A DNA stretch of 64,000 nucleotides from an uncultured Acetobacterium sp. (GTDB lineage: Bacteria > Bacillota > Clostridia > Eubacteriales > Eubacteriaceae), in NCBI GenBank assembly GCA_965140355.1, contig OZ223191.1:263185-327184 (forward strand). The letters are read 5' to 3'. Of the stretch, positions 570-64,000 are shown piece by piece; the stretch's first letter is position 1, and each line of letters opens with the position of its first letter. The translations under genes were made by a program, and so were the position numbers. A model generated the notes under the pieces. That model saw only the letters and a program-made list of their open reading frames with translations. It did not search any database and was not told the DNA's origin.

Positions 570-574
570 GGAGA

Positions 575-1078: not shown

Positions 1079-1104
1079 AAAAGTAAATTTGATCAGTTGA
1101 AAAG

Positions 1105-1146
1105 GACCGCTGGGAATTAATTTTCAGCGGTCTAAATATTTTTTTG
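1105..1146 (+). terminator. Probable intrinsic terminator after ilvH
   Basis: Stem GACCGCTG...CAGCGGTC followed by a T-rich tract. Confidence 0.65.
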
Positions 1147-1257
1147 CTATTTTACTTAAATTGGAAGCAAATGTACAATTTATTTTACTAAAAAAAGTGT
1201 ATAATTATAACGATCAATAGAAAAATGAATCTGCAGAGTTGAAAGGAGTTTTATCAT

Positions 1258-1791
1258 ATGAGTCATGAAACACATGAACATGAACATGGATGTGGTTGCG
1301 GCTGTCAGGATGGGCAAAAACAATTTGAAGAATTAACCCCAGTTTTGGATAATTACGCCGACATCCCCGGGAGTTTAATAACTATTTTACAGAAAGCACA
1401 GGAATTATATGGTTTTTTATCGGTAGAATTGATGCGCTATATCGCTATCGAAACCCATAATAGCATTGCGAAAGTATATGGTGTTGCGACCTTTTATACG
1501 CAATTTCGCTTTGAACCGGTCGGGAAATATTTAATTATGCTTTGTCAGGGGACTGCATGTCATGTTAATGGTTCAAAAATGATCGAAGAAGCAGTGATGG
1601 ACTATCTTGAAATCAAAGAAGGGGAAACAACAGCGGATGGACTATTCACCTTAAATAATGTCGCCTGTCTAGGCTGTTGTAGTTTATCACCGGTAATGAT
1701 GATTAATGATGATACCTACGGTCAACTAACTAAAGATAAGGTGAAACATATTCTTGCTGAAATAAAAGAAACCGAAAAAACTATTTCTTAG
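1258..1791 (+). CDS. stnA: NuoE/HydC-like [2Fe-2S] subunit of an Stn-type transhydrogenase (StnA-like)
   Basis: CQGTAC...CLGCC thioredoxin-like 2Fe-2S motif; operon with NuoF-like and GltD-fusion genes. Confidence 0.8.
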   Translation: MSHETHEHEHGCGCGCQDGQKQFEELTPVLDNYADIPGSLITILQKAQELYGFLSVELMRYIAIETHNSIAKVYGVATFYTQFRFEPVGKYLIMLCQGTACHVNGSKMIEEAVMDYLEIKEGETTADGLFTLNNVACLGCCSLSPVMMINDDTYGQLTKDKVKHILAEIKETEKTIS

Positions 1792-1802
1792 GAGGAAAAC
1801 AG

Positions 1803-3554: not shown

Positions 3555-3568
3555 AAGGGAGTGGGAAA

Positions 3569-7072: not shown

Positions 7073-7078
7073 AAAATG

Positions 7079-7122
7079 AAAACAGTTTAAAGGTCATTAT
7101 GACCTTTAAACTGTTTTTTTTT
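7079..7122 (+). terminator. Intrinsic terminator after the stn operon
   Basis: AAAACAGTTTAAAGGTCA-TTA-TGACCTTTAAACTGTTTT, an 18-bp perfect stem followed by a T run. Confidence 0.85.
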
Positions 7123-7219
7123 ATGTGATATATTGTTGTAAAAATCATCAAAAAATGGGAATATTTTAGCATATTTTTTGATGAATGTCTATCATAATGA
7201 TCAAAATAAATCGATAAAG

Positions 7220-7248
7220 TTGACAAGATCAAAATATTAGGCTATAAT
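7220..7248 (+). promoter_or_regulatory. Consensus sigma-A promoter upstream of the opu operon
   Basis: TTGACA (7220-7225), 17 bp spacer, TATAAT (7243-7248). Confidence 0.75.
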
Positions 7249-7568
7249 AATAAAAGGATACAATTAAATTGGTTTTAATGGTAGGCAAATTTATTCAAAA
7301 GAAGAGCTTTGTAATGGGAAAAAGTCTGAGATGTTAAAAATTTGATAAGGATAACTTATACACACTTGAAAAGTTCGTAAAAATTTAAAATACACGTTTA
7401 AATTATATTGTTCTATTTTTATATATTAAAGCAATAGCTAAATGGTGTTAGCGGCGATTAAATCATCGATTGGTTTTATCAATTACTACAACATAGAACT
7501 GTTGCTTTTTTTATTAGTTTAAATATGATTATGGCAAAAAAAATAAGCAGTGGAAAAGAAAGGAAATA

Positions 7569-8693
7569 TTGATGATACGTTTCGAAAACGTCAAGAAAAA
7601 ATTCGGTGATACAATTATTCTGAATAATATAAGTTTTAATATTGAACCAGGAGAATTTGTAGTGTTAATTGGTCCAAGTGGCTGTGGAAAAACAACAACT
7701 TTAAAGTCAATTAATCGGTTGATTACTCCAGAAGAGGGAAAAATATTTGTTAATGGACAAGATATTTCAAAAGTCAATCCAGTCAAACTCAGACGTAAGA
7801 TTGGTTATGTCATTCAGCAAATTGGCCTTTTTCCGAACATGACGATTGAACAAAATATTGGACTTGTTCCAAAACGGCTGAAATACGAAAAAAGCGAAAT
7901 TAAGAAAATTACCAAAGATTTGATGGATATGGTTGGTATGTCTTATGATGAATATGCTCATAAGTACCCGACCGAACTTTCGGGGGGACAACAGCAACGA
8001 ATTGGGGTACTACGTGCCTTAGCCGCATCACCGCCAATTGTATTAATGGATGAACCATTTGGAGCGCTTGATCCAATGACCCGAGCAACGCTGCAAGAAG
8101 AAATTGTCAAGTTGCAGAAAAAACTGAAAAAAACCATTGTTTTTGTTACCCATGATATGAATGAAGCTTTAGACTTGGCTGATAAGATCATTTTTATGGA
8201 GCGTGGTGAAATAGTTCAAATGGCCTCACCTGATGAAATGCTGGCGAATCCGGCTAATGATTTAATTCGTGATTTTATGCGAAAATCATCAGCCACTTCA
8301 GATCCGTTGAACTTAACGGCAGCCGATTTTATGCGGACGAATGCGATTAGTGTTTATAAAAAGAGAAGTATCCGTGAGTGTACGGATTTAATGGCGCGGC
8401 AACATATTGATTCACTTTTAATAAAAAACGAAGATGACACATATGCCGGGATCATTAGTATTAAAGACATTAAAAAACATGGAAAATCGTCAGGTTCGAT
8501 TGGTGAAATAACACCGTATGAAAATATTACTTCTGACATCACCGAAAATGCCAAAGACTCCTTTGATAAACTTTACAACTCTGGTGATAGCTATGTCGTT
8601 GTTTTAAATAATGATAAAACCATCGCTGGAATCATCTCCAAAACAAGCATGGCAACAGCCATGGCGGATACTTTGTGGGGGGATATGCAATGA
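7569..8693 (+). CDS. opuCA: Osmoprotectant (glycine betaine/carnitine/choline) ABC transporter ATPase with C-terminal CBS pair
   Basis: Walker A GPSGCGKTT, LSGGQQQR, MDEPFGALDP; CBS-like C-terminus. Confidence 0.85.
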   Translation: MMIRFENVKKKFGDTIILNNISFNIEPGEFVVLIGPSGCGKTTTLKSINRLITPEEGKIFVNGQDISKVNPVKLRRKIGYVIQQIGLFPNMTIEQNIGLVPKRLKYEKSEIKKITKDLMDMVGMSYDEYAHKYPTELSGGQQQRIGVLRALAASPPIVLMDEPFGALDPMTRATLQEEIVKLQKKLKKTIVFVTHDMNEALDLADKIIFMERGEIVQMASPDEMLANPANDLIRDFMRKSSATSDPLNLTAADFMRTNAISVYKKRSIRECTDLMARQHIDSLLIKNEDDTYAGIISIKDIKKHGKSSGSIGEITPYENITSDITENAKDSFDKLYNSGDSYVVVLNNDKTIAGIISKTSMATAMADTLWGDMQ

Positions 8694-9322
8694 GTTTCTT
8701 TGAAACATATGGCGATCGCTTGATTACTGCCATTCAAGTACATTTATTTTACGTATTGATCTCTGTTGCCATTGGATTTGTGGTTGCACTCATCCTGGGT
8801 ATTCTTCTGTCTCGTATTCCTCGCTACGCCAAAGTCATCATGCCGATTCTTTCGATCTTTCAGACAATTCCAGGGATTGTTTTTATTGGGATACTCTTTT
8901 TATACTTAGGGATGATTCCCGCAACGGTTATCACTGCTTTGGCAGTTTATTCAATTTTCCCTGTTCTTAAAAATACCTATACCGGATTATTGGATGTCAA
9001 ACCTGAATATATTGAAGCCGCCAAAGGGTGTGGAATGTCGCCGTTACAAACTCTGTTTGAAGTAGAGTTGCCATTAGCATCACCATCCATCATTACTGGT
9101 TTGCGGATGTCGACCATTTATACGGTTAGTTGGGCTGTTTTAGCAGCGATGATTGGCTTGGGTGGCCTGGGTGAATTTATTTATATCGGCATTGCCTCAA
9201 ATAATGACCAATTAATATTAGCGGGTGCGATTCCTTCAGCTATTATGGCGATTATTTTGAGTTTGTTAATTGACGTAATTCGTCGAGTCGTTGTTCCTAA
9301 AGGGTTAAGGAGTGTGAAGTAA
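8690..9322 (+). CDS. opuCB: Osmoprotectant ABC transporter permease
   Basis: Hydrophobic; EAAKGCGM EAA loop; GLGGLG motif. Confidence 0.8.
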   Translation: MSFFETYGDRLITAIQVHLFYVLISVAIGFVVALILGILLSRIPRYAKVIMPILSIFQTIPGIVFIGILFLYLGMIPATVITALAVYSIFPVLKNTYTGLLDVKPEYIEAAKGCGMSPLQTLFEVELPLASPSIITGLRMSTIYTVSWAVLAAMIGLGGLGEFIYIGIASNNDQLILAGAIPSAIMAIILSLLIDVIRRVVVPKGLRSVK

Positions 9323-9918
9323 TGGATTTTTCATTAGTATTTGAACATCTTTATCTGGTGTTGATGACGGTTTTGTTTTCCGTTATCGTAGGATTGCCAT
9401 TGGGGATTTTAGCTTATCTAAAACCCGCGGTTCGAAAAATTATTTTGTGGGCAGTTGAAATATTACAAACAATTCCGGCATTAGCCCTGCTTGGGTTGAT
9501 CATAATCGCTTTAGGTCCGGGAAAATTAACGGTTATTGCCGGACTGGTACTTTATTCACTGTTGCCGATTGTTCATAACACTTATATTGGTTTAGAAACG
9601 GTTGATAGTGGGATTAAAGAGGCAGGCAGAGGAATGGGATTAACGCAAGTTGATCGGCTCATTTCGGTTGAAGTACCACTTGCGTTTCCGATGATTTTTA
9701 CCGGTATTCGCATTGCGACAGTTACCACAATCGGGGTTGCTGTTTTTGCAACTTCAGTAGGAGGAGGTGGTTTAGGCGCTGTTATTTACCAGGGAATTCG
9801 AACTCAGAACATGGAATTAATTCTCTTTGGTACCGCAGCATTAATGATTATGGCAATATTTTTTGATGTTTTAATGATTTGGATTAATAGTCATTTGGTT
9901 AAACAAACATCAAATTAA
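9322..9918 (+). CDS. Osmoprotectant ABC transporter permease
   Basis: QTIPALAL, EAGRGMG, GGGGLG motifs; start overlaps the previous stop. Confidence 0.85.
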   Translation: MDFSLVFEHLYLVLMTVLFSVIVGLPLGILAYLKPAVRKIILWAVEILQTIPALALLGLIIIALGPGKLTVIAGLVLYSLLPIVHNTYIGLETVDSGIKEAGRGMGLTQVDRLISVEVPLAFPMIFTGIRIATVTTIGVAVFATSVGGGGLGAVIYQGIRTQNMELILFGTAALMIMAIFFDVLMIWINSHLVKQTSN

Positions 9919-9944
9919 AAACTGTTATGAAATGAAAAGAGAAT

Positions 9945-10105
9945 GTCGTTAGTGGGGTGCTGGAAAAACGAATAAAAAGCAGTGGTTTTTATTCGTTTTG
10001 TTATAACCCACATTGGTTTTAGCAGGCAATTGCGATACGACCGTGAGCTTTGTGAAAACCGAACACAAAGCTATGATTGGTTGCTGTTTCGCGTTTCGCA
10101 ATGAC
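9945..10105 (+). other. Highly structured intercistronic region between permease and binding-protein genes
   Basis: 14-bp perfect stem 9965-9978/9986-9999; 9-bp stem 10046-10054/10064-10072; outer TTGCGA/TCGCAA and GTGGG/CCCAC pairings. Confidence 0.55.
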
Positions 10106-10136
10106 CTGGTTGGTTTTAGGAGTGAAAGGAAAAATT

Positions 10137-11051
10137 ATGAAAAAGTTAATGAGTTTTATTATTCTGGTAGCATTGGCACTTTCTGTTGCTGGTTGTAGCA
10201 CGAACAAAGATGAGGCGTCAATTATTATTTATGATGGAACATTTTCGGAAATGAGAATTGTTCATCAAATGGTTAAAATGGTTGTTGAAGACCATACCGA
10301 TGCGACCGTTGATATTCGTGATGAAATGGATGAAGTTAATACATTCAAAGAAATGGTCGCCGGGAATGTCGATATCCTAAACACTTACGATGGTACCTTA
10401 TTAACAACCTTCTTAAAGTTAGATACGGCCGATATCCCGGAAGGAATGACGCTTTACGATTACGCAAATCAAGTTGCCTCAGAGGAAAAAGGGGTTCATA
10501 TGCTTGATAAATTAGGCTATGAAAATACTTATGCGGTCGGTGTTTTACCGGCAACGGCGGAAAAATATAATTTAAAAACCATCAGTGATTTAGCTGCCGT
10601 TTCTGATCAACTTGTTTTTGGTGCTGAACATGGTTTTTACACGGAAGAAGGAAGTATGAAATATGGACCATTCACTAAATTTTATGGTCTGAATTTTAAA
10701 GAAAATAAACCTCTTGATCTGGCCTTAAAGTATACGGCGATTGAAAATGGGAATATTGATGTTACTATTGTTTATACAACGGATGGACTCAATAAACAAG
10801 CTGGTTTGGTCGTTTTAGAGGATGATCGAAGTTTTTTCCCGGAATATTACGATGCTTTGCTCGTCAGAAATGACTTGTTTGATCGTTTTAGTGACGTTGC
10901 ACCGAACCTTGAAGAAGTATTAAATAGTTTGGGTGGCCAATTCACTGAAGAAACGATGACGGATCTGACCTATGAAGTTGATGTCAATGGCAGAACGCCA
11001 GAAGAGGTTGCCCATGAGTTTTTATTAAATAAGGGGCTTATCTCAAAATAA
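10137..11051 (+). CDS. opuCC: Glycine betaine/choline-type ABC substrate-binding lipoprotein
   Basis: RBS before ATG 10137; lipobox VAGC; YENTYAVGV and YTTDG OpuAC-family motifs. Confidence 0.85.
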   Translation: MKKLMSFIILVALALSVAGCSTNKDEASIIIYDGTFSEMRIVHQMVKMVVEDHTDATVDIRDEMDEVNTFKEMVAGNVDILNTYDGTLLTTFLKLDTADIPEGMTLYDYANQVASEEKGVHMLDKLGYENTYAVGVLPATAEKYNLKTISDLAAVSDQLVFGAEHGFYTEEGSMKYGPFTKFYGLNFKENKPLDLALKYTAIENGNIDVTIVYTTDGLNKQAGLVVLEDDRSFFPEYYDALLVRNDLFDRFSDVAPNLEEVLNSLGGQFTEETMTDLTYEVDVNGRTPEEVAHEFLLNKGLISK

Positions 11052-11110
11052 TATAAAATTGAGAAGTGCTAATAATGTTAAATATTTAGACTAAATCAAT
11101 AAAAATTAAA

Positions 11111-11156
11111 ACAAGAGGATAAGAGTAATTCAATTTGGTTACGCTTATCCTTTTGT
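11111..11156 (+). terminator. Probable terminator after the opu operon
   Basis: ACAAGAGGATAAG...CTTATCCTTTTGT inverted repeat. Confidence 0.6.
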
Positions 11157-11366
11157 TGTATAAATTAATCGTAAAAATCAAACGAACGTTTTGCATAAGA
11201 CTAGAATTTAATGATAATAGAATAAAAGGCACGATAAAGCTACAAAATGTTGATTACAATGATTGCCAAGAAGAATTAAATATATTCAATGTTCAAGCGG
11301 AGATACTTTTGGTATAATATGGTTATGTGTTTGATTAAGAAAAAAGAAAAAGAAAGTGAGTTCAAA

Positions 11367-14009
11367 ATGAAAAGTGTCTTAATTGACGGGAATAGTCTAT
11401 TTTATCGTACATTTTATGCCATTCGAGAAATGTTTAATTCAAAAGGGGTGCCAACAAATGCCATTTATGGTTTTGTCAATATATTAGTAAAAATACAAGA
11501 AGAGTATCGGCCAAACTATCTGGGGGTCGCTTTTGATTTAAAAGGACCAACGTTTAGACATTTAGCTTATGATGAGTACAAGGGCGGTCGTCAAAAAATG
11601 CCAGAACTTTTGGCGGAACAGTTTTTGTTATTAAAAGAACTCTTAAAAAAAATGGATATTGCCATAATTGAACGGGAAGGATTTGAAGCTGATGATATCA
11701 TTGGGACGCTGGCAACAATTGGTTCGGAAAAAGGCATTCAAACAGAAATTATTACTGGCGATCGCGATGCTTTTCAATTAGTTGGGCCTAATATAAAAGT
11801 GCTTTATACAAAAAAAGGCATCTCTCAATTGGAAGAGGTGGATGAAGCGTGGATCAATACACAATACGGTCTTACGCCTAAAGACCTCATTGATTTAAAA
11901 GCTTTAATGGGGGATAAATCAGACAATATTCCCGGGATTGCCGGGATTGGTGAAAAAACGGCGATTAAACTTTTGAAGCAGTATGGAACCCTGGAAAAGA
12001 TTTATGAAAACATTGAGGAACAAAAGGGGAAACAAAAAGAAAAAATTGTTGCCGGAAAAGATGACGCTTTTTTGAGTCGGATGTTGGGGACCATTAAACG
12101 GGACGTTCCCTGGGAAGGCAATTATGAAGAACTGACTTTTCATAATATCTTTAATCCCGAAAGCATTGAACTACTAAAAGAATTAGAATTTAATACTCTT
12201 TTATCAAAAATAGATGCTGCTGAAGTGGTGGAAACCATTGAAAAGTCAGTATCGTGTCATAAGATTAAAACAAGTTCAGAAATGGATCATTTATTTGCGA
12301 TTCTTGGACAGACCAAAGAAATTGTTATTTATTATCATCAGGAAGAAACGAAAATTTATTTGGCGCTGGGAATAGAAAATGAGTTTTATTATTTAAACCC
12401 CGAAGCTGTTGATGGGTTAAAATTTTTCGAACGACTAAGGAATCTACCGACGATTGGAACATTGTCTATTGCTAGTCAGGATCTCAAAAACCTGATTCAT
12501 ATTTTTCATAAAAATGAGATTCAGGTAATCAATGAAGGCTTTGATACCTATATTGCGACTTATCTTTTGAGCCCAGGCGATCAACGTTATGATTTAAAAA
12601 CGGCAGCATATAAATATTTGGATCGTAATATTTTGGATGATGAAGAGATGTTTGGAAAAGGCAAAAAAATGGTTGCAGCTGAAAGTCTGGATGAACAGCT
12701 TTTAGCCGATTATTTTGTTAAGAATTGTGAAACAATCCGCGATTTAAAAGCAGTTTTGGAAGAAGAGCTCAACAAGACCGAAATGATGACCTTGTTTAAA
12801 ACCATTGAAATGCCATTATTAGAAGTGATGGCAGCGATGGAGGAGTTAGGGTTTAAAATTGATTTGAGTCAATTGGAAATCCTTTCAATGGAATTTGAAA
12901 AAAAACTAACAGATTTAACCCGCGAAATATATGAATTGGCTGAGACGGATGAATTTAATATCAATTCACCCAAACAATTGGGTGAGATTCTTTTCGAACA
13001 ACTGAAATTGCCAGTGGTGAAAAAGACTAAAACAGGATATTCTACTAATATTGATGTGTTAGAGCAGTTGATTCATTTTCATCCGATTATTGAAAAAATT
13101 ATTGATTACCGCATGTTATCAAAGTTGGATTCGACTTATGGCCGGGGTCTGATCGCATTTGTTGAACCTGAAACCCATAAGATTTATTCAACCTTTAATC
13201 AAACGGTGGCAGCAACCGGACGACTTAGCAGTTCAAACCCGAATTTACAAAATATACCGGTAAAAACAGAGATTGGTCGAGAAATCCGCCGGGTTTTTGT
13301 ACCATCAACGCCAGATCGTATTTTGGTAAGTGCTGATTATTCACAAATTGAGCTCCGGGTTTTAGCGCATCTTTCAGGGGATGAAAATTTGATTGATGCT
13401 TTTAAAAAGGAACAGGATATTCACACCAGAACCGCTTCAGAAATTTTTGGGGTAGCACTTGATGCGGTCACTCGAATCCAAAGAGGGCAGGCAAAAGCGA
13501 TTAATTTTGGGTTGATTTATGGAAAACAGGCCTTTAGCTTGGGAAAAGATTTAGGAATCTCCAGAAATGAAGCACAGGACTATATTAACCTTTATTTTGC
13601 ACGTTATCCAAAGGTTCAGGTATATATGGAAAATGTCAAACGGCAAGCAAAAGAAGAGGGTTATGTCACGACGATTTGGGGGAGACGACGATATATCCCG
13701 GAAATGAATTCCCGTAATGGCATGCTTGTTCAGGCTGGTGAGCGAATGGCCTTAAATACGCCGATCCAAGGGAGTGCTGCGGATATTATTAAGTTAGCGA
13801 TGATTAAGGTATACAACCGGCTTAAAGATGAAAATCTGAAAGCTGAATTAATTCTTCAAGTCCATGATGAACTAATTATCGATACGCCCAAAAATGAACA
13901 AACGCAGGTGGAGCGCCTGATTAAAGAAGAAATGGAAGGGGCCGCAAGCTTGAGTGTGCCGATGACGGTTGACGTTAATAGCGGAACATCCTGGTTTGAT
14001 TTAAAATAA
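11367..14009 (+). CDS. polA: DNA polymerase I
   Basis: 5'-3' exonuclease start LIDGNSL; motif A DYSQIELR; KAINFGLIYG; LQVHDEL; ATG 11367 preferred over the upstream ORF start. Confidence 0.97.
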   Translation: MKSVLIDGNSLFYRTFYAIREMFNSKGVPTNAIYGFVNILVKIQEEYRPNYLGVAFDLKGPTFRHLAYDEYKGGRQKMPELLAEQFLLLKELLKKMDIAIIEREGFEADDIIGTLATIGSEKGIQTEIITGDRDAFQLVGPNIKVLYTKKGISQLEEVDEAWINTQYGLTPKDLIDLKALMGDKSDNIPGIAGIGEKTAIKLLKQYGTLEKIYENIEEQKGKQKEKIVAGKDDAFLSRMLGTIKRDVPWEGNYEELTFHNIFNPESIELLKELEFNTLLSKIDAAEVVETIEKSVSCHKIKTSSEMDHLFAILGQTKEIVIYYHQEETKIYLALGIENEFYYLNPEAVDGLKFFERLRNLPTIGTLSIASQDLKNLIHIFHKNEIQVINEGFDTYIATYLLSPGDQRYDLKTAAYKYLDRNILDDEEMFGKGKKMVAAESLDEQLLADYFVKNCETIRDLKAVLEEELNKTEMMTLFKTIEMPLLEVMAAMEELGFKIDLSQLEILSMEFEKKLTDLTREIYELAETDEFNINSPKQLGEILFEQLKLPVVKKTKTGYSTNIDVLEQLIHFHPIIEKIIDYRMLSKLDSTYGRGLIAFVEPETHKIYSTFNQTVAATGRLSSSNPNLQNIPVKTEIGREIRRVFVPSTPDRILVSADYSQIELRVLAHLSGDENLIDAFKKEQDIHTRTASEIFGVALDAVTRIQRGQAKAINFGLIYGKQAFSLGKDLGISRNEAQDYINLYFARYPKVQVYMENVKRQAKEEGYVTTIWGRRRYIPEMNSRNGMLVQAGERMALNTPIQGSAADIIKLAMIKVYNRLKDENLKAELILQVHDELIIDTPKNEQTQVERLIKEEMEGAASLSVPMTVDVNSGTSWFDLK

Positions 14010-49283: not shown

Positions 49284-49390
49284 GTTGGAACTTTCCAACG
49301 ATAAGGGCAAACCTATTGAAAAATAGCGACGCAAAACTAAAGGGCCTGTAAAATGGCAGCCAGTTACCGAAAACGGGAAGTTTTTGTTTT
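49284..49390 (+). promoter_or_regulatory. c-di-GMP-I (GEMM-I) riboswitch, copy 1, with a candidate terminator
   Basis: GGGCAAA-CCTATT-GAAA-AATAG-CGACGCAAA-ACT...GGCC...GGCAGCCAGTTACCG; followed by CCG-AAAA-CGG and TTTTTGTTTT. Confidence 0.88.
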
Positions 49391-49434
49391 GTAAAAGACA
49401 GATAAAATGGTAGTTATAAAAGTGAATATGATCG

Positions 49435-49541
49435 TGGAAAGCTTTCCAACGATAAAGGCAAACTTATTGAAAGATAGGGACGCAAAGCTAGAGGGCCTGT
49501 AAAATGGCAGCCAGTTACCGAAAACGGAAAGTTTTTGTTTT
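49435..49541 (+). promoter_or_regulatory. c-di-GMP-I riboswitch, copy 2, with a candidate terminator
   Basis: AGGCAAA-CTTATT-GAAA-GATAGG-GACGCAAAGCT...GGCAGCCAGTTACCG; same 3' hairpin and U tract. Confidence 0.9.
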
Positions 49542-49594
49542 ATAAAAGATTGATTGATATTATTGTTGTAAGAATTAAAGATTAAGAAAAGATC

Positions 49595-49695
49595 GTGGAA
49601 TGTTTTCCAACGATAAAGGCAAACCAACTGAAAAGTTGGGACGCAAAGCCAAGGGCCTGTAAAATGGCAGCCGGCTACCGAAAGGAGTTTCCATC
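49595..49695 (+). promoter_or_regulatory. c-di-GMP-I riboswitch, copy 3, abutting the RBS
   Basis: AGGCAAA-CCAACT-GAAA-AGTTGG-GACGCAAAGCC...GGCAGCCGGCTACCG then AAAGGAG and ATG 49696. Confidence 0.9.
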
Positions 49696-51048
49696 ATGAA
49701 AAAGGTAGTAGTTTTATTAGTAGCACTTTGTATGACATTTAGTATGGTGCCAGTTAATGCAGCATATCATTATAGTGATAATAATCCTAGTAGAAATGTT
49801 GTGGCAACAGAGCCATCTCCACAACCAGAAGTTGTAACAGTAGTTCAACCAGAAAAAGAAGTTGCTGCACCAAGTAGTGAATCGGTAAATGTGAAAGATT
49901 ATAACGCTAAGGGCGATGGTGTTGCAGATGATACATCAGCAATCCAAAATGCATTGAATAAAAATAATTCAGTTTATATTCCGGATGGAACATATATGAT
50001 TAATGTTGATCAATCATTGCGAGTCAATTCGAATCAAACAATCACAATGAGTGCAAATGCTGTTTTAAAAGCGATTCCAACCTCAAGTGAATCCAATGCT
50101 GTTATTCTTGTTTCTGGAGTAAAGAATGTAAATATCTCTGGTGGAAGAATAATTGGCGAAAGAAATAGCCATAAGGGAACAACTGGTGAATGGGGAATGG
50201 GAATTCGAATAATTGATGGCGCAGAAAGTATCACAGTAACTAATATTACTATTAGCGATTGTTGGGGCGATGGCATCTATGTTGGTGGATTCATTAACGA
50301 AGATTCGGTTAGTTCAATCTTAATCGATAACGTTGTTAGTGATAACAATAGAAGACAAGGTTTATCAATTACAAGTGCCAAAAACGTAATCGTCAGCAAC
50401 AGTGTATTTAAAAACACAAATGGAACAGCACCGGAATCTGGCATTGACATTGAACCAAATAAGGATCAAGTTACTGAAGATATTAAAATCATTAACACTG
50501 AGACTTCTGGTAATAATGGAGTAGGGATTTTATTATATGGTAAAAGTGGAACAGTTCGAGGGGTTGAGATTTCAAATAGTACATTAATCAATAATGGTGA
50601 TTTGGGTCTTGCATTAATCACAGCTAATGATCTTACTATCAGTAATACTAAGATTGCTAATAATTGGGTTGGGGTTGAAATTCGAAGTGATATAGTAAAT
50701 ACTATTTTCAAAAATACAGTTATCTCAGAAAATTATGATGCTGGTGTAAAATTGGTTGCAAAATCTCAAAGTTCAGGAATCGAAAACGTTGTTTTTCAAG
50801 AGTCAACATTTGCTAACAATAGTCAATATTCAGCAGGAGCTGCAGATGGTATAAAAATTAGCAATGCAGATTCTTCAGGATATATTAAAGGGATTCAGTT
50901 CAAGGATAGTGAATTCATTGATAATCAGAGCTCGCCTACTCAAAGATCTGGTATTGCGATTGCTTCTTCTAATTCTGTAAGCGGTATAGAGATTGATAAT
51001 AACTGTACTTTTAATGGTAATATTGCAGGCAATAAAATTTCTTTATAA
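49696..51048 (+). CDS. Secreted right-handed parallel beta-helix protein (pectate lyase 3-like; possible polysaccharide lyase or modifier)
   Basis: Signal peptide ending PVNA; NVKDYNAKGDGVADDT...; DCWGDGIY, NRRQG, GIDIEPN; Asn-rich repeats. Confidence 0.8.
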   Translation: MKKVVVLLVALCMTFSMVPVNAAYHYSDNNPSRNVVATEPSPQPEVVTVVQPEKEVAAPSSESVNVKDYNAKGDGVADDTSAIQNALNKNNSVYIPDGTYMINVDQSLRVNSNQTITMSANAVLKAIPTSSESNAVILVSGVKNVNISGGRIIGERNSHKGTTGEWGMGIRIIDGAESITVTNITISDCWGDGIYVGGFINEDSVSSILIDNVVSDNNRRQGLSITSAKNVIVSNSVFKNTNGTAPESGIDIEPNKDQVTEDIKIINTETSGNNGVGILLYGKSGTVRGVEISNSTLINNGDLGLALITANDLTISNTKIANNWVGVEIRSDIVNTIFKNTVISENYDAGVKLVAKSQSSGIENVVFQESTFANNSQYSAGAADGIKISNADSSGYIKGIQFKDSEFIDNQSSPTQRSGIAIASSNSVSGIEIDNNCTFNGNIAGNKISL

Positions 51049-51356: not shown

Positions 51357-52811
51357 ATGGACGACGTTCAAATAAAATCCAAAGTCATTTCATCACTCTT
51401 TTGGAAACTCATGGAGAGGGGAGGAACCCAAGGGATACAATTTATAATACAGATAGTGTTGGCGCGCCTACTTCTTCCCGAAGAATATGGACTAATTGCG
51501 ATATTAACAATTTTTATTTCTATAGCAAATATACTTGTGCAATACGGCTTTAATACAGCACTTATTCAAAAAAAAAGCGCCGATGATACGGATTTTTCTT
51601 CCGTTTTCTTTTTAAGTTTAGCGGTGGCAGGACTGCTTTATGGTATTCTTTTTTTTACGGTTCCACTAATAGCTAGTTTTTATGAAAAACAAATGCTTGT
51701 TCCATTGCTTAGAGTATTAGCGTTAACATTATTTATTGGAGCCTTAAATTCGATACAAAATGCTGTTGTAGCTAGAAGTTTAGAGTTTAAAAAACTATTT
51801 TACAGTAGTATAGGTGCAATTGTAGTGTCCGGAATTGTTGGGATTGTAATGGCTTATATTGGTTATGGTGTATGGGCGTTAGTGATGCAACAGTTGATAA
51901 ATCAATTAGCGATCGCGGTCATACTTTGGTTTACAGTAAAATGGAGACCAAAGCTTCTTTTTTCTATCGAGAGCTTGAAAAGTATGTTTTCATTTGGATG
52001 GAAATTGTTAATATCGGCATTAATAGATACACTTTATATCAATTCATATAGCCTTGTAATCGGTAAAATGTATAACCCAGCAATGTTGGGTTATTTTAGC
52101 AGGGGTCAACAATTTCCAGGACTTGTTGTAATTAATGTGAATGGATCAATTCAATCGGTAATGTTTCCAGCCCTCTCAGCTCAACAAGATAACAAACTAA
52201 GAGTTAAAACAATGGTGCGCAGAGCAATTGTAACCAGCTCTTTCTTAATATTTCCGATGATGGTTGGGTTAGCAGTTATCGCTGAACCGTTAGTAAAGAT
52301 TTTACTAACGGATAAGTGGTTACCATGTGTACCATTTTTACAAATTTCATGCGCAGGATATGCTTTAATGCCAATTCACACATCAAATTTACAAGCGATT
52401 AATGCATTAGGTCGAAGCGATATTTTTTTAAAACTAGAGATTATAAAAAAAACAATTGATGTTTTAATTCTTGTTGTATCTATCTTTTATGGTATCTATG
52501 CAATTGCGATTGGACTACTTGTTGCTAATATTATTTCTTCTTTCGTAAACGCTTATCCAAATTTGAAGTTATTAGATTACAGTTATAAACAACAAATAAA
52601 AGATATAATGCCGTCACTCATCCTTTCATTGATAATGGGCAGTGTAATTTATTGTTTTTCATTGCTTGAAATGAATCCCGGTCTAACGATAATCGTTCAA
52701 ATTAGTATTGGAATAATTTTATATTTTGGAATGGCAAAAATATTAAAGTTGGAAAGCTTTACATATTTAATTTCTACGGGAAAAGAACTTTTTACTAATG
52801 GGAAAAGGTAA
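51357..52811 (+). CDS. wzx: Polysaccharide flippase (WzxC-like)
   Basis: LARLLLPEEYG, GFNTALIQ, GYFSRG, MVGLAVIAEPLV; multi-TM. Confidence 0.92.
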   Translation: MDDVQIKSKVISSLFWKLMERGGTQGIQFIIQIVLARLLLPEEYGLIAILTIFISIANILVQYGFNTALIQKKSADDTDFSSVFFLSLAVAGLLYGILFFTVPLIASFYEKQMLVPLLRVLALTLFIGALNSIQNAVVARSLEFKKLFYSSIGAIVVSGIVGIVMAYIGYGVWALVMQQLINQLAIAVILWFTVKWRPKLLFSIESLKSMFSFGWKLLISALIDTLYINSYSLVIGKMYNPAMLGYFSRGQQFPGLVVINVNGSIQSVMFPALSAQQDNKLRVKTMVRRAIVTSSFLIFPMMVGLAVIAEPLVKILLTDKWLPCVPFLQISCAGYALMPIHTSNLQAINALGRSDIFLKLEIIKKTIDVLILVVSIFYGIYAIAIGLLVANIISSFVNAYPNLKLLDYSYKQQIKDIMPSLILSLIMGSVIYCFSLLEMNPGLTIIVQISIGIILYFGMAKILKLESFTYLISTGKELFTNGKR

Positions 52812-52874: not shown

Positions 52875-53750
52875 ATGGATATAAAAAGAAAGGTTAAGAT
52901 GGCACTAAAGAAGGTCAAAGCGGGAATATTAAAGATGGATATGCTTTTTTTAAAAGGTAATATCAGAGCGTGGCACTCACGTTATTTTAAATATCGTGGC
53001 AAAGCCCATAAGTTGACAAAGGATATTTATTTTCCTCCACATACCTTTTCTAATAGTAATGTTCGAATGGGACCGTCAGGGGAATTATTAGCAATCGGAG
53101 GAGACTTGTCATCAGAACGAATAATTTATGCATTTAAAAATGGAGTTTATCCGATGTTTTTTAAGAATGATCCGATTCTTTGGTGGACTTCAAACACGCG
53201 TTGTATTTTATACTTGGAAAAATTACATATTGGAAGAGATGTAAAAAAATTTTTGAAGAATCAAAAATTCAATCTGACAACAGATAGAGCTTTTGAAGAT
53301 GTTGTAAATGCCTGCTCAGAATTAAGAAAAGGTGACACATGGCTTACCTCTGAAAGAATAGATGCATCGATAAAACTTCATGAGTCTGGATTTGCTCATT
53401 CCGTCGAAGTTTGGCAGAACGAGAACTTAATAGGGGGATTATTTGGCATTATGATTGGATCCTATTTTTATCTCGAATCAATGTTTAAGCGGGTTGATCA
53501 TAGTTCAAAAGTGGCATTTGTTGCATTAAGTCTCAGGTTAAAGGAGTTGGATTTTTTTATGATAGACTTGGGAATTTGGCCGACTAATAATTTATTAAAT
53601 TATGGTGCTGAAATTATTAATCGTGATGAGTACTTGAAACTAGTAAATAAAAGCATTAGTAGTCCAGACACAAATATAGAATGGGAAGAATTGTTTGAAA
53701 ACTGGGATCTCAAAATGGCGGTTGAAAGACATCTTCAGGAAAATCGATGA
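52875..53750 (+). CDS. Leu/Phe-tRNA-protein transferase (Aat)-like protein, paralog 1
   Basis: LLAIGGDL, YPM, PILWW, AF.DVV.AC, TW, LHE.GFAHSVEVW, GGLFG, ESMF. Confidence 0.85.
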   Translation: MDIKRKVKMALKKVKAGILKMDMLFLKGNIRAWHSRYFKYRGKAHKLTKDIYFPPHTFSNSNVRMGPSGELLAIGGDLSSERIIYAFKNGVYPMFFKNDPILWWTSNTRCILYLEKLHIGRDVKKFLKNQKFNLTTDRAFEDVVNACSELRKGDTWLTSERIDASIKLHESGFAHSVEVWQNENLIGGLFGIMIGSYFYLESMFKRVDHSSKVAFVALSLRLKELDFFMIDLGIWPTNNLLNYGAEIINRDEYLKLVNKSISSPDTNIEWEELFENWDLKMAVERHLQENR

Positions 53751-53940
53751 TTTAGTTTTATTTTATAAAGAACGATGGTTAGAAAATTAAAAATAATTAT
53801 TCTAAATGTAAACATAATATTTTGAATTTAATTTTTATAATAACTCAACCAAACAATAAATAGATTTATATAGAATTTATATTCGAAGGTTTTCTTATTA
53901 TTAGAATCTGCTTTTAAATTTTTGATAAAAGGAGTGGAAC

Positions 53941-54807
53941 ATGACAATCGACAAAGTGAAAAAGAGCATTACCCAGATTAATAAACGATTTTTAAAAGGG
54001 AGCATAAAAGCATATTACCTGCATTACTTTAAATACAAGGGAAAAGCTTATAATTTAACGAAAGACATTTATTTTCCACCACATTCGACATCAAATAAAA
54101 ATTTGAGAATGGGACCATGTGGAGAACTGCTGGCAATTGGAGGAGATTTGACGCCGGAGCGGATGATTTTTGCTTATAAAAATGGAATCTATCCAATGTA
54201 TTTCGAAAATTATCCAATTTTGTGGTGGACTTCAGAAATTCGATGTGTTATATTTCCTAATAATATTCATATTTCTAAAGGTGTGCGAAATTTTGTAAAA
54301 AAAACAAACTTTCGTCTTACCGTGGATAGTGCTTTCAAAGATGTTGTATATGCATGTAGGGAAACGAGAGAGGAATCCACTTGGATTACGCCTGAAAGGA
54401 TTACAGCCTCTTGTAAATTGCATGAATTAGGGATTGCTCATTCTTTTGAAATATGGGACGGAGATCAATTGATCGGGGGATCATTTGGTGTTGCTATGGG
54501 ATCATATTTTTATGGTGAATCTCAGTTTACAAGAGTAAGTAATGCGGGAAAAGTCGCTATGGTTGCATTATGCCTCCGATTAGACGAATTAAATTATTCT
54601 TTGGTAGATGGTGGGTTTTGGCCAACGAAATACTTAAAAGAAATGGGATCTGAGATTATTAGCCGCGAAGCGTATCTAAAAATATTGGAGCACAGCGTGT
54701 GTGAACCGGACATTGTCAAAAATTGGAGCGGTTTATTTGAAAACTGGGATCTTAGATTGGCTATTGAAAAACATCTCAAACAAAAGTCACAAACAGCAAG
54801 TGCTTAA
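53941..54807 (+). CDS. Aat-like protein, paralog 2
   Basis: LLAIGGDLTPER, PILWW, TWITPE, LHELGIAHSFEIW, GESQF. Confidence 0.85.
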   Translation: MTIDKVKKSITQINKRFLKGSIKAYYLHYFKYKGKAYNLTKDIYFPPHSTSNKNLRMGPCGELLAIGGDLTPERMIFAYKNGIYPMYFENYPILWWTSEIRCVIFPNNIHISKGVRNFVKKTNFRLTVDSAFKDVVYACRETREESTWITPERITASCKLHELGIAHSFEIWDGDQLIGGSFGVAMGSYFYGESQFTRVSNAGKVAMVALCLRLDELNYSLVDGGFWPTKYLKEMGSEIISREAYLKILEHSVCEPDIVKNWSGLFENWDLRLAIEKHLKQKSQTASA

Positions 54808-54923
54808 TAATTCTTACATATCAAAGAAAGTATTGATTTTGTATAGATCGGTTCGATTTTATATTGATATCAATAAGTGGTGTACTAAGTTAACATATTG
54901 CGATAAATATGGGAGAATTAAAA

Positions 54924-55787
54924 ATGAAAGTTGGTAAAATTAAAGAGTTGCTTTTTAAAATCGATAAAACTCTTTTTAATGAAAATATTAAAGGGTGTTA
55001 TTCGAAGCATCTTGCTTATCGGGGAAAAGCGTATAAATTAACGAAAGCGTTGTATTTTCCTCCTCATGCATCTTCAAATAAAAATATCCGAATGGGAATT
55101 GAATCGAGTGGAGAATTGCTGGCTTTTGGCGGAGATTTGACGCCGGAACGAATGATTTTAGCCTATAAAAAAGGAATCTACCCATTGTTTTTTGATAAAC
55201 AACCAATTCTTTGGTGGACTTCAGAAATCCGGTATGTTTTATTTCCACAGAAACTACATATCGGAAAAAAAATGCGAAGAATTATTAAAAAAAACAATTA
55301 TGTTTTAACAGCAGATAAAGCTTTCAGAGATGTAATTTGTGCTTGTCGCGAGACTAGAAAAGAATTTACTTGGATTACGCCAGAACGAATTGAGTCATCC
55401 TGTAAGTTACACGAATTGGGATTCGCGCATTCCATAGAAATTTGGCAGGATGAGCGATTGGTCGGAGGATTATATGGAGTTATGATTGGCTCGTGTTTTC
55501 AAGTTGAGTCGATGTTTAGACGAGTAGATAATGCAGCGACGGCAGCATCGATTGGACTATTGCTACGATTAAGTGAAATAGATGGTATTGTTGTAGATTG
55601 TGGATTTTCAGTTTCTGAGCATATTAAAAATATGGGAGCTGAAATGATTTCACGCGATGAATTTCTCGAAATGATTGAAAAAATCATGAAAAATACGGAT
55701 AGTATAGAGAATTGGAATAGTTTATTTGAAAACTGGAATTTCAAACAAGCTGTTGAAAATCATTTTATATTAGATCATAAAACATAG
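54924..55787 (+). CDS. Aat-like protein, paralog 3
   Basis: LLAFGGDLTPER, PILWW, TWITPE, LHELGFAHSIEIW, GGLYG, ESMF, VDC; RBS GGAGA before ATG 54924. Confidence 0.85.
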   Translation: MKVGKIKELLFKIDKTLFNENIKGCYSKHLAYRGKAYKLTKALYFPPHASSNKNIRMGIESSGELLAFGGDLTPERMILAYKKGIYPLFFDKQPILWWTSEIRYVLFPQKLHIGKKMRRIIKKNNYVLTADKAFRDVICACRETRKEFTWITPERIESSCKLHELGFAHSIEIWQDERLVGGLYGVMIGSCFQVESMFRRVDNAATAASIGLLLRLSEIDGIVVDCGFSVSEHIKNMGAEMISRDEFLEMIEKIMKNTDSIENWNSLFENWNFKQAVENHFILDHKT

Positions 55788-55880
55788 ATTTAAGCGTGTT
55801 GCAAAAGATTTTATAGAAATAATTTCAATAATATTTAGTTAAATCTAAAATAGTTATGGTTTCAAATAAAGGAGTTAAAA

Positions 55881-56975
55881 ATGAGTAACATAATCAATGT
55901 CACGCGCTCCTCAATGCCAACTTTTGAAGAGTATGTCGAAGAAATTAAAGATCTGTGGGAAAGCCATTGGTTAACAAATATGGGGATAAAACACGAACAA
56001 TTTTGCATCGATATAACAAAATACTTGAATGTGCCTCAGGCATCTCTTTTTACTAATGGTCATTTAGCACTTGAATGTACCATTGCGGCATTTGATTTAA
56101 CGGGGGAAGTTATCACGACACCCTTTACTTTTGCGTCAACTACACATGCAATTCTTAGAAATGGTTTAGAACCGGTTTTTTGCGATATTAATGAAAAAGA
56201 TTATACTATCGATGTGAATAAGATTGAGTCTTTAATCACAAAAAACACATGTGCTATTATACCAGTACACGTGTATGGAAATGTATGTAATGTGAAAGAG
56301 ATCGAAAGCATTGCAAAGAAATACAACCTCAAAGTAATATATGATGCCGCACATGCTTTTGGAGTAACTGTTGATGGTGTCGGAATAGGCAATTTTGGAG
56401 ACGCCGCAATGTTTAGTTTTCATGCTACAAAAGTTTTTAACACTATTGAAGGTGGTGCTGTAACCTATCAATATGAAAATCTTGAAAGAATACTCTATTA
56501 TCTAAAAAACTTTGGAATTACTGGAGCTGAGTCGGTGGAATATGTTGGTGGTAATGCCAAAATGAGCGAGTTTCAGGCAGCAATGGGCATTTGTAACCTT
56601 AGACACGTTGATGAGGATATTGCTAAAAGAAAGAGGGTAACAGAACGCTACCGGGAAAATTTAGAAAATATAAATGGCATAAAACTTGTTAAACCTCAAC
56701 TTGGAATAAAAAGTAATTATGCTTATTTTCCTGTCGTATTCGATGGATACCCTAAATCAAGAAACCAGGTTTTTGAAGAACTAGAAAAAAATAATATTTA
56801 TGCTAGGAAATATTTCTATCCGTTAACAACTAGTTATGAATGTTTTGCAAATAGATTTAATTCAGCTGAAACTCCGGTTGCAAAACATACAGCAGAGCGG
56901 GTTTTGACACTTCCATTATATCCAGATTTAGATTTAGAAGATATTGATCGAATTTGTGAAATCATTAAAAGTTAA
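55881..56975 (+). CDS. vioA: DegT/DnrJ sugar aminotransferase, VioA-type (dTDP-4-amino-4,6-dideoxyglucose synthesis)
   Basis: GEVITTPFTF, YDAAHAFG, SFHATKVFNTIEGG (PLP Lys), RKYFYPL; closely follows the E. coli VioA pattern as recalled. Confidence 0.85.
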   Translation: MSNIINVTRSSMPTFEEYVEEIKDLWESHWLTNMGIKHEQFCIDITKYLNVPQASLFTNGHLALECTIAAFDLTGEVITTPFTFASTTHAILRNGLEPVFCDINEKDYTIDVNKIESLITKNTCAIIPVHVYGNVCNVKEIESIAKKYNLKVIYDAAHAFGVTVDGVGIGNFGDAAMFSFHATKVFNTIEGGAVTYQYENLERILYYLKNFGITGAESVEYVGGNAKMSEFQAAMGICNLRHVDEDIAKRKRVTERYRENLENINGIKLVKPQLGIKSNYAYFPVVFDGYPKSRNQVFEELEKNNIYARKYFYPLTTSYECFANRFNSAETPVAKHTAERVLTLPLYPDLDLEDIDRICEIIKS

Positions 56976-57062
56976 AGATGCTTTTTTAGCGTAAAAATGC
57001 ATAAAATATAGTTAGTCGTTACTTAAAATTGTTATCCGTGAAAATATAGAGAGGAAAAGACA

Positions 57063-57782
57063 GTGGATATTTCGATCATGCAACCTTATCTATTTCCATA
57101 TATTGGATATTTTCAAATGATCAATTATGTTGATTACTTTATCATTGATGATAATGTTCAATATATCAATAGAGGATGGATAAATAGAAATAGAATATTA
57201 TTAGATGGAAAAGATTATATGATCACACTCCCAGTTGTGAAAGCGAGTTCACATTTAAATATTAATGAACGTTACTTTGTTGATGATCCTGATAAAAAGA
57301 ACGAAAAAAAGCTAATGAAGACAATTTATCATGCATATCGTAATGCACCTGAATTTAAGGTGTGTTATGAATTGTTAGAAGAAATATTTAATTTTAGTAA
57401 TAAAAATGTTGCGGAATTTACTGGTAATAGTTTAAAGCAGATATGCAATTATCTAGGAATTGAAGTAACAATTATCATGCAATCAACGATAAATTCAGCA
57501 GCGGATTTGAATTATCAAGATTCGATCATACAGACATGCAAGAAACTAAAAGCGGATAGCTATATTAATGCAATTGGCGGGATGGAATTATATTCTGCTA
57601 AAAGATTTAGGAAAAACAATTTATCCTTAAAGTTCATAAAAACAAAAGATTCAATTGAATATAAGCAATTCAAGAATACTTTTTTGCCAAACCTGTCCAT
57701 AATTGACGTAATGATGTTTAATTCAAAAACGGATATTGTAAAACTTTTATGTCAATATGATCTAGTGGATGGAAAAAATTAA
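57063..57782 (+). CDS. wbqC: WbqC-family protein (putative glycyl/aminoacyl transferase for Qui4N)
   Basis: IMQPYLFPYIGYFQ, WINRNRI, YINAIGG..LY, NLSIIDVMMFN. Confidence 0.88.
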   Translation: MDISIMQPYLFPYIGYFQMINYVDYFIIDDNVQYINRGWINRNRILLDGKDYMITLPVVKASSHLNINERYFVDDPDKKNEKKLMKTIYHAYRNAPEFKVCYELLEEIFNFSNKNVAEFTGNSLKQICNYLGIEVTIIMQSTINSAADLNYQDSIIQTCKKLKADSYINAIGGMELYSAKRFRKNNLSLKFIKTKDSIEYKQFKNTFLPNLSIIDVMMFNSKTDIVKLLCQYDLVDGKN

Positions 57783-58031: not shown

Positions 58032-59198
58032 ATGAAAATTACAATTGCTGGAACAGGATATGTCGGTTTGTCAAATGCGATTTTGTTAGCACAACATAAT
58101 GAGGTTATTGCACTTGATATTATCAAAGAAAAAGTTGATATGATTAACAACAAAAGATCGCCGATCATTGACCGTGAAATAGAAGAGTATTTAATGAATA
58201 AAAAGCTAGACTTAATAGCGACCACTGATAATTATATTGCTTTTAAAGATGCTGATTATGTGGTTATTTCTACACCGACAAATTATGATCCAGAGAAAAA
58301 TTATTTTAATACTCGGACAGTTGAAGCTGTAATTGCCAATGTTCTTTCAATAAATCCAGATGCAATTATGATAATTAAATCAACGGTACCCGTTGGTTAT
58401 ACGGAAATTATTAAAGAAAAATTCGAGACGGAAAATGTTATTTTTTCACCAGAATTTTTAAGAGAAGGCAAAGCACTATATGATAATCTTTATCCATCAA
58501 GAATAGTTATTGGTGAGCAATCAGTTAGAGCTAAGGTGTTTGCAAAATTGCTGGTGCAAGGAGCAATTAAAGAAAATATTGATGTACTTTATACTAAATC
58601 AACTGAAGCGGAAGCGATAAAGCTTTTTGCCAATACATATCTTGCTTTGCGGGTGGCATATTTTAATGAGCTTGATTCATATGCTGAAGTAAGAGGACTA
58701 GATACTCGAAGTATTATTGAAGGGGTCGGACTTGATCCAAGAATTGGGAAACATTATAATAATCCTTCTTTTGGTTATGGCGGATATTGTCTGCCAAAAG
58801 ATACAAAACAACTCCTTGCTAATTATTCAGATGTTCCTCAAAATATCATGTCGGCTATTGTTGACGCAAATAGAACGAGAAAAGATCATATTGCTGAAAT
58901 GATTATCAAGAAAAATCCTAAAATAGTTGGGATATATCGACTTACAATGAAAATGGATTCGGACAATTTTAGAGAATCAGCTGTTCAAGGAGTTATGAAA
59001 CGAATTAAAGCAAAAGGAATAGAAGTAGTCGTTTTTGAACCAACTCTAAATATCGATAAATTCTTCAACTCTAAAGTGATTATCGATCTTGAAGAATTTA
59101 AAGAAGTTTCCGATATTATCGTTGCAAATAGACTTACAGATGAAATTAAAGATGTTATAGATAAGGTGTATACCAGAGATATATTTAGCAGAGATTAA
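58032..59198 (+). CDS. ugd: UDP-glucose 6-dehydrogenase
   Basis: [37 protein letters not shown]. Confidence 0.95.
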
Positions 59199-63439: not shown

Positions 63440-64000
63440 GTGAAAAAGAAAACAAGCAGGCAGCTATTTCTAGTTGTTTCTGATATCTTATTACTAAATA
63501 TTGCTTTTCTATTGGCATTGTTGTTACATTATGAGGGGCATGTTCCAACAGTAATTAGAACTATTTATTTGAATAGTTTTATTATTTTGACGATTGGAAA
63601 AATTTTAATCTATCGGTATTTTGAGTTATATAGTAGTTTATGGTCATATGCTTCAGTGGATGAATTCATAAAAATTCTAATAGCGGGTTTTGTGACAAAT
63701 GTTTTTAGTACTGCATATCTCATATTAATGGGAGCGCAACTATTCTTTGGCGTTTATATAACAGCAATGATTCTAGAAGTTGGATTTATTGGCGGAGTGC
63801 GTTTTAGCTATCGACTGATTAGAAATCTAAGAAATAAAAATCTATTTAACAAACAGGAACATGAGAAAAAAATATTGATCATAGGAAGTGGATCAACAGC
63901 AACTCTGATTGCTACTGAAATTAGAAATCACGCATCAAGCTATGGTCAAGTCATTGGTTTTATTGACGATGATGAGAATAAATTGAATAAACGAATTTCG
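63440..64000 (+). CDS. CapD/PglF-like nucleotide-sugar 4,6-dehydratase, N-terminal part (runs off the window)
   Basis: GTG start after GAGGA; 4 TM segments, YSSLWSYAS..E, GGVRFSYR, KILIIGSG...GFIDDD. Confidence 0.85.
   Translation, partial: MKKKTSRQLFLVVSDILLLNIAFLLALLLHYEGHVPTVIRTIYLNSFIILTIGKILIYRYFELYSSLWSYASVDEFIKILIAGFVTNVFSTAYLILMGAQLFFGVYITAMILEVGFIGGVRFSYRLIRNLRNKNLFNKQEHEKKILIIGSGSTATLIATEIRNHASSYGQVIGFIDDDENKLNKRIS

Follow-up and report, generated by a model that had tools for sequence, protein, structure and literature searches.

What are three consecutive genes for leucyl/phenylalanyl-tRNA-protein transferase (L/F-transferase, Aat)-like proteins doing in a surface-polysaccharide locus? 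The question is raised by a 64,000-nucleotide stretch of the low-GC (~32%) genome of an uncultured Acetobacterium sp. (contig OZ223191.1; this whole stretch is hereafter called the window), which holds a polysaccharide locus of the Wzx/Wzy type. Three similar, co-oriented genes of this kind had been predicted there between the flippase gene wzx and an aminotransferase-WbqC gene pair, and the open reading frames, their PF03588 matches and their neighbours confirmed this arrangement. We refer to them as aatL1, aatL2 and aatL3. The feature is real and well defined, and from sequence the function proposed for it is plausible. Our preferred reading, based on genomic context and sequence and given a probability of roughly 0.55, is that aatL1-3 encode aminoacyl-tRNA-dependent transferases which would furnish a 4-amino sugar with an amino acid or short peptide as substituent. 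The place of the three proteins would thus probably be in the synthesis of a polysaccharide, not in the N-degron pathway.

Membership of the family was observed directly. All three proteins matched PF03588 (Leu_Phe_trans) over positions 1-170 of the 171-position model, with 181, 192 and 184 bits respectively (cut-off 22.7), and this was the sole Pfam family found in them at E <= 0.01; the FemAB domain (PF02388) was not matched. They also scored above the cut-off of the TIGR00667 'aat' equivalog, marginally (150.1, 168.1 and 163.1 bits vs 143.55). AatL2 could be aligned with Aat of Escherichia coli (EC 2.3.2.6; PDB 2z3k, 2dps, 2cxa) over about 188 residues of the 2z3k sequence (E 2e-47). Among themselves the three paralogs share 50-56% identity. 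A recent tandem duplication was ruled out, since in the tree each of the three falls into an old sublineage of its own, which has orthologues in other genomes. Compared with the orthologous triple of a related locus (L022; related loci are given L numbers throughout), the ratio of nonsynonymous to synonymous substitution rates (dN/dS) was 0.26 for aatL1, 0.05 for aatL2 and 0.26 for aatL3. These values resemble those of the neighbouring genes and show that the triple is under purifying selection.

The three proteins belong to a separate branch of the family. A database search returned about 54 clusters of long forms, 280-320 residues in length and scoring above 300 bits, vs canonical Aats of 200-245 residues that scored below 200 bits. 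The long forms constitute one monophyletic clade with 100% support in the Shimodaira-Hasegawa-like approximate likelihood ratio test. Compared with E. coli Aat they are extended at the N-terminus by about 40 residues, a strongly basic stretch with an invariant motif of its own, Y..GKA..LT.D.YFPPH..SN.N. To compare individual positions, E. coli residues were mapped by HMMER alignment together with a joint MAFFT alignment. Q188 was replaced by Gly in 49 of 49 tabulated long forms, in contrast to Gln in all 19 canonical sequences sampled; likewise W49, invariant in 19/19 canonical sequences, was a non-Trp residue (non-aromatic or variable) in 49/49 long forms. Like the E. coli enzyme, on the other hand, the long forms match PF03588 over its full length and keep D186, W58, W111, most hydrophobic positions of the pocket, the Lys/Arg-rich helix (76-88) and the GES motif with E156. 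Among 32 long-form sequences from several phyla, 42 columns were invariant, including D223 (the D186 equivalent) and many pocket residues. The combination of Gly188 and non-Trp49 was identical in members from polysaccharide loci and in those from other contexts.

The window's paralogs conform to this signature. D186 is retained and Q188 is Gly in all three; the W49 equivalent is M, M and L in aatL1, aatL2 and aatL3 respectively; the WW(S/A)P motif of canonical Aat, there WWSPDPR, reads WWTS(E/N)(I/T)R; E156 is retained; and helix positions 76-88 contain 4-6 Lys/Arg per paralog. They diverge in the pocket. At positions equivalent to E. coli 144, 158, 170, 173 and 185, aatL1 carries the hydrophobic set L, M, F, L and I, aatL2 the more polar set S, Q, M, L and V, and aatL3 the set L, M, S, L and V, all of them pocket-compatible.

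We take the basic helix and the hydrophobic pocket of E. coli Aat (M144, M158, L170, F173, I185) to serve the aminoacyl-tRNA donor, and Q188, presumably located at the acceptor alpha-amine, to be the proposed catalytic residue; E156 is, on the same assumption, assigned to recognition of basic N-terminal residues. If these roles hold, the donor side of the long forms would be conserved and their acceptor side remodelled, since D186, helix and pocket are kept while Q188 and W49 are lost. An aminoacyl-tRNA donor and amide-forming chemistry, as in E. coli Aat, would then be expected, with a different acceptor. We also considered an amphipathic membrane anchor as a role for the extension. Its hydrophobic moment was no different from that of shuffled sequences, except weakly for aatL2; the test points neither way, and the extension is best described from its sequence as strongly basic.

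If the donor chemistry is kept, is the long form still coupled to protein degradation? The original prediction had noted that the window contains no clpS. This extends to the whole genome: in the 99.99%-complete assembly ClpS (PF02617) was not found, and aatL1-3 were the sole PF03588 matches. ClpS was also not found in two Acetobacterium genomes and one Solirubrobacterales metagenome-assembled genome (MAG) that carry long forms. Moreover, two Campylobacterota genomes encode a canonical Aat of 224-225 residues about 2.3 kb from clpS and, elsewhere, a long form. Since both types occur together there, the long form is a paralogue in its own right, not the form that Aat takes in certain lineages. 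A distinct Aat subfamily decoupled from ClpS, as had been proposed, is thus borne out by monophyly, by the absence of ClpS and by this separate paralogue. Public sources label the relatives of aatL1-3 'leucyl/phenylalanyl-tRNA--protein transferase', a label that follows from the equivalog cut-off being just passed; in organisms without ClpS it is probably a functional mis-annotation. Gly188 and non-Trp49, together with the N-terminal YFPPH..SN.N motif, provide a simple rule by which long forms can be told from canonical Aat.

We then surveyed the genomic context in 102 genomes from 32 genera of the window's order, plus metagenomic loci. Within the order, PF03588 was limited to Acetobacterium, where it occurred in 10 of 27 genomes, a patchy distribution that is typical of glycan-diversification genes. 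In eight of these ten genomes a long Aat lies immediately 5′ to a 70-73%-identical DegT aminotransferase gene, together with wzx and WbqC; the distance between Aat and DegT is 35-40 nucleotides in nearly every case within the genus. Metagenomic contigs repeat the order Wzx-Aat-DegT-WbqC, and in nearly all related loci a DegT orthologue is found directly 3′ to the long-form Aat. Wzx orthologues of 71-77% identity also adjoin the long-form genes in related loci. WbqC is co-located with the long form in most polysaccharide loci, and the ratios of Aat to WbqC copies across the eight genomes and related metagenomic loci include 3:1, 3:3, 2:2, 2:1 and 1:1. The highest WbqC copy number was seen in Eubacteriaceae bacterium ES3 (CP130741.1; L019, 1413-12331), with three tandem WbqC genes and three long-form Aats, one of them shortened to 227 residues and lacking the N-terminal extension.

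Two further architectures were found in polysaccharide clusters. The A. woodii-type locus carries one long Aat in a different cluster, with FdtA, Hexapep, DegT, Wzx, Ugd and DUF2334. In L043 and L020, a Bac_transf gene is followed by an Aat, an ATP-grasp L-amino-acid-ligase-like gene, RraA, a second Aat, two more ATP-grasp genes, an unknown gene and Wzx, without DegT or WbqC. From this gene content, both would represent a second, independent polysaccharide association, in which the long forms are joined by further enzymes that make peptide bonds; L043 looks like a different peptide-on-glycan assembly system. The latter lies on a contig of JGI metagenome 3300040744 (locus coordinates 320-11902), where Wzx is followed by an APH/choline-kinase-like gene and one for a family 26 glycoside hydrolase.

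The association is not exclusive. The original prediction had asked whether the clade is consistently neighboured by wzx, vioA and wbqC; recurrence in polysaccharide loci, with DegT adjacent and WbqC usually present, was indeed found, but five long-form loci lie elsewhere. Two are from Campylobacterota (Helicobacteraceae and Sulfuricurvum), one is from Solirubrobacterales, one is metagenomic and one is from the window's own genus. In L004 the neighbours are M20 peptidases and RidA, in L007 MoeA and a major facilitator superfamily (MFS) transporter gene, in L023 MerR and DUF2284, and in L042, the Acetobacterium case, a holin and NYN. In L008, from the Solirubrobacterales MAG, an M16 peptidase gene and two tandem long Aats form an apparent operon (7768-10870) between gyrA and recJ. 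With neither ClpS nor a polysaccharide context, this locus suggests that in that lineage the acceptor may be a peptide or a protein.

What could the acceptor in the window be? The aminotransferase gene 3′ to aatL3 had been named vioA. Its assignment to the sugar 4-aminotransferases holds, but the name is only approximate: the best NCBIfam match was DesI, at 283 bits vs a cut-off of 650, and the best PDB match was 2po3. The enzyme is therefore most similar to DesI-type dTDP-4-keto-6-deoxyglucose 4-aminotransferases, and its substrate can be assigned only approximately from this similarity. RmlB is present in the genome on another contig, while genes for a CapD/PglF-like dehydratase and a PglC-like initiating transferase lie in the locus itself; for this reason the acceptor could be either dTDP-linked 4-amino-4,6-dideoxyglucose (dTDP-Qui4N) or a UDP-4-amino-4,6-dideoxy-N-acetylglucosamine (bacillosamine-type) sugar. 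Neither a hexapeptide nor a GNAT N-acetyltransferase was found among the locus proteins scanned, which implies that the 4-amine is acylated by something else or stays free.

A candidate for the first acylation is WbqC. The window's protein matched PF08889 with 223 bits (cut-off 21.3) over model positions 1-215 of 218, and no relative with a solved structure was found for it by sequence. An AlphaFold2 model computed from a 54-sequence alignment (mean predicted local distance difference test score 94.6) displayed a Rossmann-like fold, whose best PDB match was BshC (4wbd; probability 0.99, template modelling (TM) score 0.44, E 0.011, 8% identity), followed by E1-type adenylating enzymes and class I aminoacyl-tRNA synthetase cores. 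BshC couples cysteine to the amine of the amino sugar glucosaminyl-malate (PMC5372718), the kind of reaction proposed here for WbqC, but it differs in its size of 540 residues and its extra domains. In Streptomyces, a WbqC gene lies in a conserved operon with a prolyl-tRNA synthetase paralogue, a dedicated tRNA, a family 4 glycosyltransferase (GT4), LmbE and a MurG-like gene (PMC10404621). The fold match in the model and the Streptomyces operon together make it plausible that WbqC is an amino-acid:amino-sugar ligase which primes the substituent. A literature search found no experimental establishment of WbqC function.

From these elements we infer donor, acceptor, order of steps and product as follows. 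The DesI-like DegT enzyme would make a nucleotide-linked 4-amino-4,6-dideoxy sugar with a free amine, and WbqC would attach a first amino acid to that amine. This residue would offer a free alpha-amino group, to which the Aat-like enzymes would add further amino acids taken from charged tRNAs, by the chemistry that canonical Aat performs on a protein N-terminus; alternatively, they may act directly on the sugar amine. The three paralogs would probably add different residues, given that their side-chain pockets differ. Finally, the decorated sugar would enter a Wzx/Wzy-dependent, uronic-acid-containing surface polysaccharide. In its fullest form, this scheme amounts to a ribosome-independent, tRNA-dependent peptide assembly line on a sugar, primed by WbqC and elongated by up to three specialised Aats, with a peptide-decorated and possibly zwitterionic polysaccharide as product; we propose this form only tentatively, as it is somewhat more likely to be wrong than right. 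Overall, the interpretation given in the original prediction is partly supported; that the acceptor is Qui4N and that WbqC adds Gly were assumptions in it.

Several observations weigh against glycan decoration by aatL1-3. A. woodii-type loci carry the long Aat without WbqC, and because of the five loci outside polysaccharide clusters the function at clade level need not be glycan-specific. The Aat-DegT-WbqC loci are not independent observations, since most come from one genus. The change of Q188 to Gly removes a residue that was proposed to act in catalysis, so that reduced or altered chemistry is possible, and E156, kept in all three paralogs, would go with a positively charged acceptor resembling a peptide. 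Lastly, the similarity of the WbqC model to BshC is weak, as its TM score and E value indicate.

Alternatively, the long forms might still modify proteins or peptides, by N-terminal aminoacylation of a specific protein or processed peptide independently of ClpS; their position in the locus would then reflect an export or assembly protein as target, or co-regulation. Scores above the equivalog cut-off in all three paralogs, and conservation of D186, of E156 in the window's paralogs and of the donor-side residues, are what such a function would predict. So are the peptidase neighbours, M16 directly 5′ to two copies in L008 and M20 in L004, which would fit an acceptor with a newly exposed N-terminus. 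It accounts poorly, however, for the consistent adjacency of Aat to a sugar aminotransferase and WbqC in at least 10 locus architectures, for the interleaving of long Aats with ATP-grasp ligases in L043, and for a copy number of 1-3 that tracks locus type. Moreover, W49 and Q188 are lost in every tabulated member, ClpS is absent, and no candidate protein substrate is conserved beside the long-form genes. We regard a protein or peptide acceptor as unlikely.

Slightly less credit still is due to another non-protein acceptor shared by the whole clade, for example a lipid head group, a precursor of the cell wall or the amine of a small molecule. The Acetobacterium locus would then be a lineage-specific recruitment or the outcome of hitch-hiking on a mobile glycan island. 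Members in three other phyla, and one within the genus, do have unrelated neighbourhoods; the Gly188/W49-loss signature does not distinguish them from polysaccharide-locus members; and the N-terminal extension, being strongly basic, would fit an anionic acceptor or tRNA. No alternative pathway, however, is conserved around the members outside polysaccharide loci, and the short spacing between Aat and DegT in nearly every case within the genus, like the second association in L043/L020, counts against such an acceptor. That aatL1-3 are relics with impaired catalysis, or binding proteins without enzymatic activity, as Gly in place of the proposed catalytic Gln in all members might suggest, is very improbable in view of their strong purifying selection (dN/dS 0.05-0.26), the 42 invariant columns, the retention of the long form in Campylobacterota in addition to canonical Aat, and mutagenesis in the literature that reportedly points to D186, rather than Q188, as the indispensable residue.

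The preferred reading, aminoacyl-tRNA-dependent decoration of a 4-amino sugar, has partial counterparts in known systems. FemX/FemA/FemB and MurM/MurN are serial paralogous aminoacyl-tRNA-dependent transferases that build a short peptide on a sugar-linked precursor, as predicted here, and FemABX proteins belong to a related GNAT-like fold superfamily (PMC12945691). They differ in their Pfam family, their double-GNAT architecture and their acceptor, the Lys side chain of a muropeptide. Orf11 (Sba18) of the BD-12 pathway, which leads to a streptothricin analogue, converts streptothrisamine to glycylthricin in a Gly-tRNA-dependent manner (PMC12945691). This reaction is a precedent in which an amino sugar is N-aminoacylated in a tRNA-dependent way; Orf11, however, is FemABX-like, belongs to the pathway of a small-molecule antibiotic and transfers one glycine only. 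Canonical Aat itself is set apart from the long forms by the lack of the extension and its motif, by Gln188 and Trp49 and by its ClpS partner, whereas long forms occur in 1-3 copies with divergent pockets, in polysaccharide loci beside an amino-sugar aminotransferase and, in the window's genome, with no ClpS. No Aat-family enzyme was known to the author of the original prediction in such a role, which agrees with a January 2026 review of aminoacyl-tRNA-dependent biosynthetic enzymes, which covers only FemABX-like transferases of GNAT fold and no PF03588 member (PMC12945691). We likewise found no paper linking PF03588 to polysaccharide or glycan pathways, and no characterisation of Gly addition to viosamine. 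Amino-acid-substituted amino sugars are widely reported in bacterial surface glycans; no paper establishing the enzymes responsible was found.

If the preferred reading is true, L/F-transferases do more than mark proteins for degradation: one branch has been recruited for glycan decoration and joins FemABX and the MprF type as a third enzyme lineage by which aminoacyl-tRNA is diverted to the cell surface. The biosynthesis of amino-acid-substituted amino sugars would also become easier to explain, and the very large uncharacterised WbqC family would have a testable partner and role. Should the more tentative assembly line exist as well, L/F-transferases would have their first acceptor that is not a protein, and FemXAB would have a second counterpart, of independent evolutionary origin.

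The features of the locus are listed below. The PglC-like gene is likely the start of the locus and its initiating enzyme. It is followed by an epimerase-like gene, two GT4 genes, an IS110 insertion, a family 2 glycosyltransferase (GT2) gene, an EpsG-type polymerase gene, a second GT2 gene, a beta-helix protein gene and wzx; then come aatL1-3, DegT, WbqC, Ugd, a gene for a coiled-coil protein, CpsB and the start of the CapD/PglF-like dehydratase gene. No convincing terminator was found in the interval from wzx to WbqC.

Table. Features of the polysaccharide locus, in window coordinates
Feature	Coordinates	Strand	Supporting match
PglC-like small phosphoglycosyl transferase (Bac_transf)	39948..40595	+	PF02397 E 5.7e-61
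IS110-family transposase	44195..45526	-	DEDD_Tnp_IS110, Transposase_20
Three tandem c-di-GMP-I-type riboswitch aptamers	49296..49683		Rfam
Secreted beta-helix (pectate-lyase-like) protein	49696..51048		
Wzx-type flippase (MOP family), directly 5′ to the three Aat-like genes	51357..52811	+	PF13440 E 4.7e-101
Long-form Aat paralog 1 (aatL1), 291 aa	52875..53750	+	PF03588 E 1.7e-53
Long-form Aat paralog 2 (aatL2), 288 aa	53941..54807	+	PF03588 E 8.7e-57
Long-form Aat paralog 3 (aatL3), 292 aa	54909..55787	+	PF03588 E 2.6e-54
DegT/DesI-like sugar 4-aminotransferase	55881..56975	+	PF01041 E 2e-95
WbqC-family protein	57063..57782	+	PF08889 E 5e-66
UDP-glucose 6-dehydrogenase (Ugd)	58032..59198	+	PF03721, PF00984, PF03720
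Coiled-coil protein, 949 aa	59446..62295		
CapD/PglF-like membrane 4,6-dehydratase, N-terminus, cut by window end	63440..64000	+	open reading frame

For aatL3, the database gene call uses an alternative start at 54924, giving 287 residues. Ugd would, judging from its family, supply uronic acid for the same polysaccharide. The CapD/PglF-like frame extends beyond the window to 628 residues, within which a genome match (C1:327476-327856) showed weak TIGR01181 similarity; its orthologue in L017 and L022 is a 621-residue Polysacc_synt_2 gene, and it is the predicted source, within the locus, of a 4-keto-6-deoxy sugar.

Rfam and ARAGORN revealed no dedicated tRNA, T-box or other RNA element for the cluster and its surroundings; their yield there was limited to three cyclic di-GMP (c-di-GMP) riboswitches and a distant tRNA-Leu. 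Two of the three aptamers score as the GGC variant, and all lie directly 5′ to the beta-helix protein gene, which is common to many related loci. The IS110-family transposase gene splits the GT4 from the GT2 genes, and its GC content is 41% vs ~32% in the flanks. The coiled-coil protein encoded between Ugd and CpsB has no Pfam match; it is kept at the equivalent position in related loci, with 88% identity in A. woodii, and its orthologues there show only a faint HmpF match. Finally, in several Aat-DegT-WbqC loci DegT is separated from the first wzx by the gene for a conserved protein of 395 residues without Pfam match (L021, 9979-11166; orthologues in L038, L039, L050 and L051), which is absent from the window.

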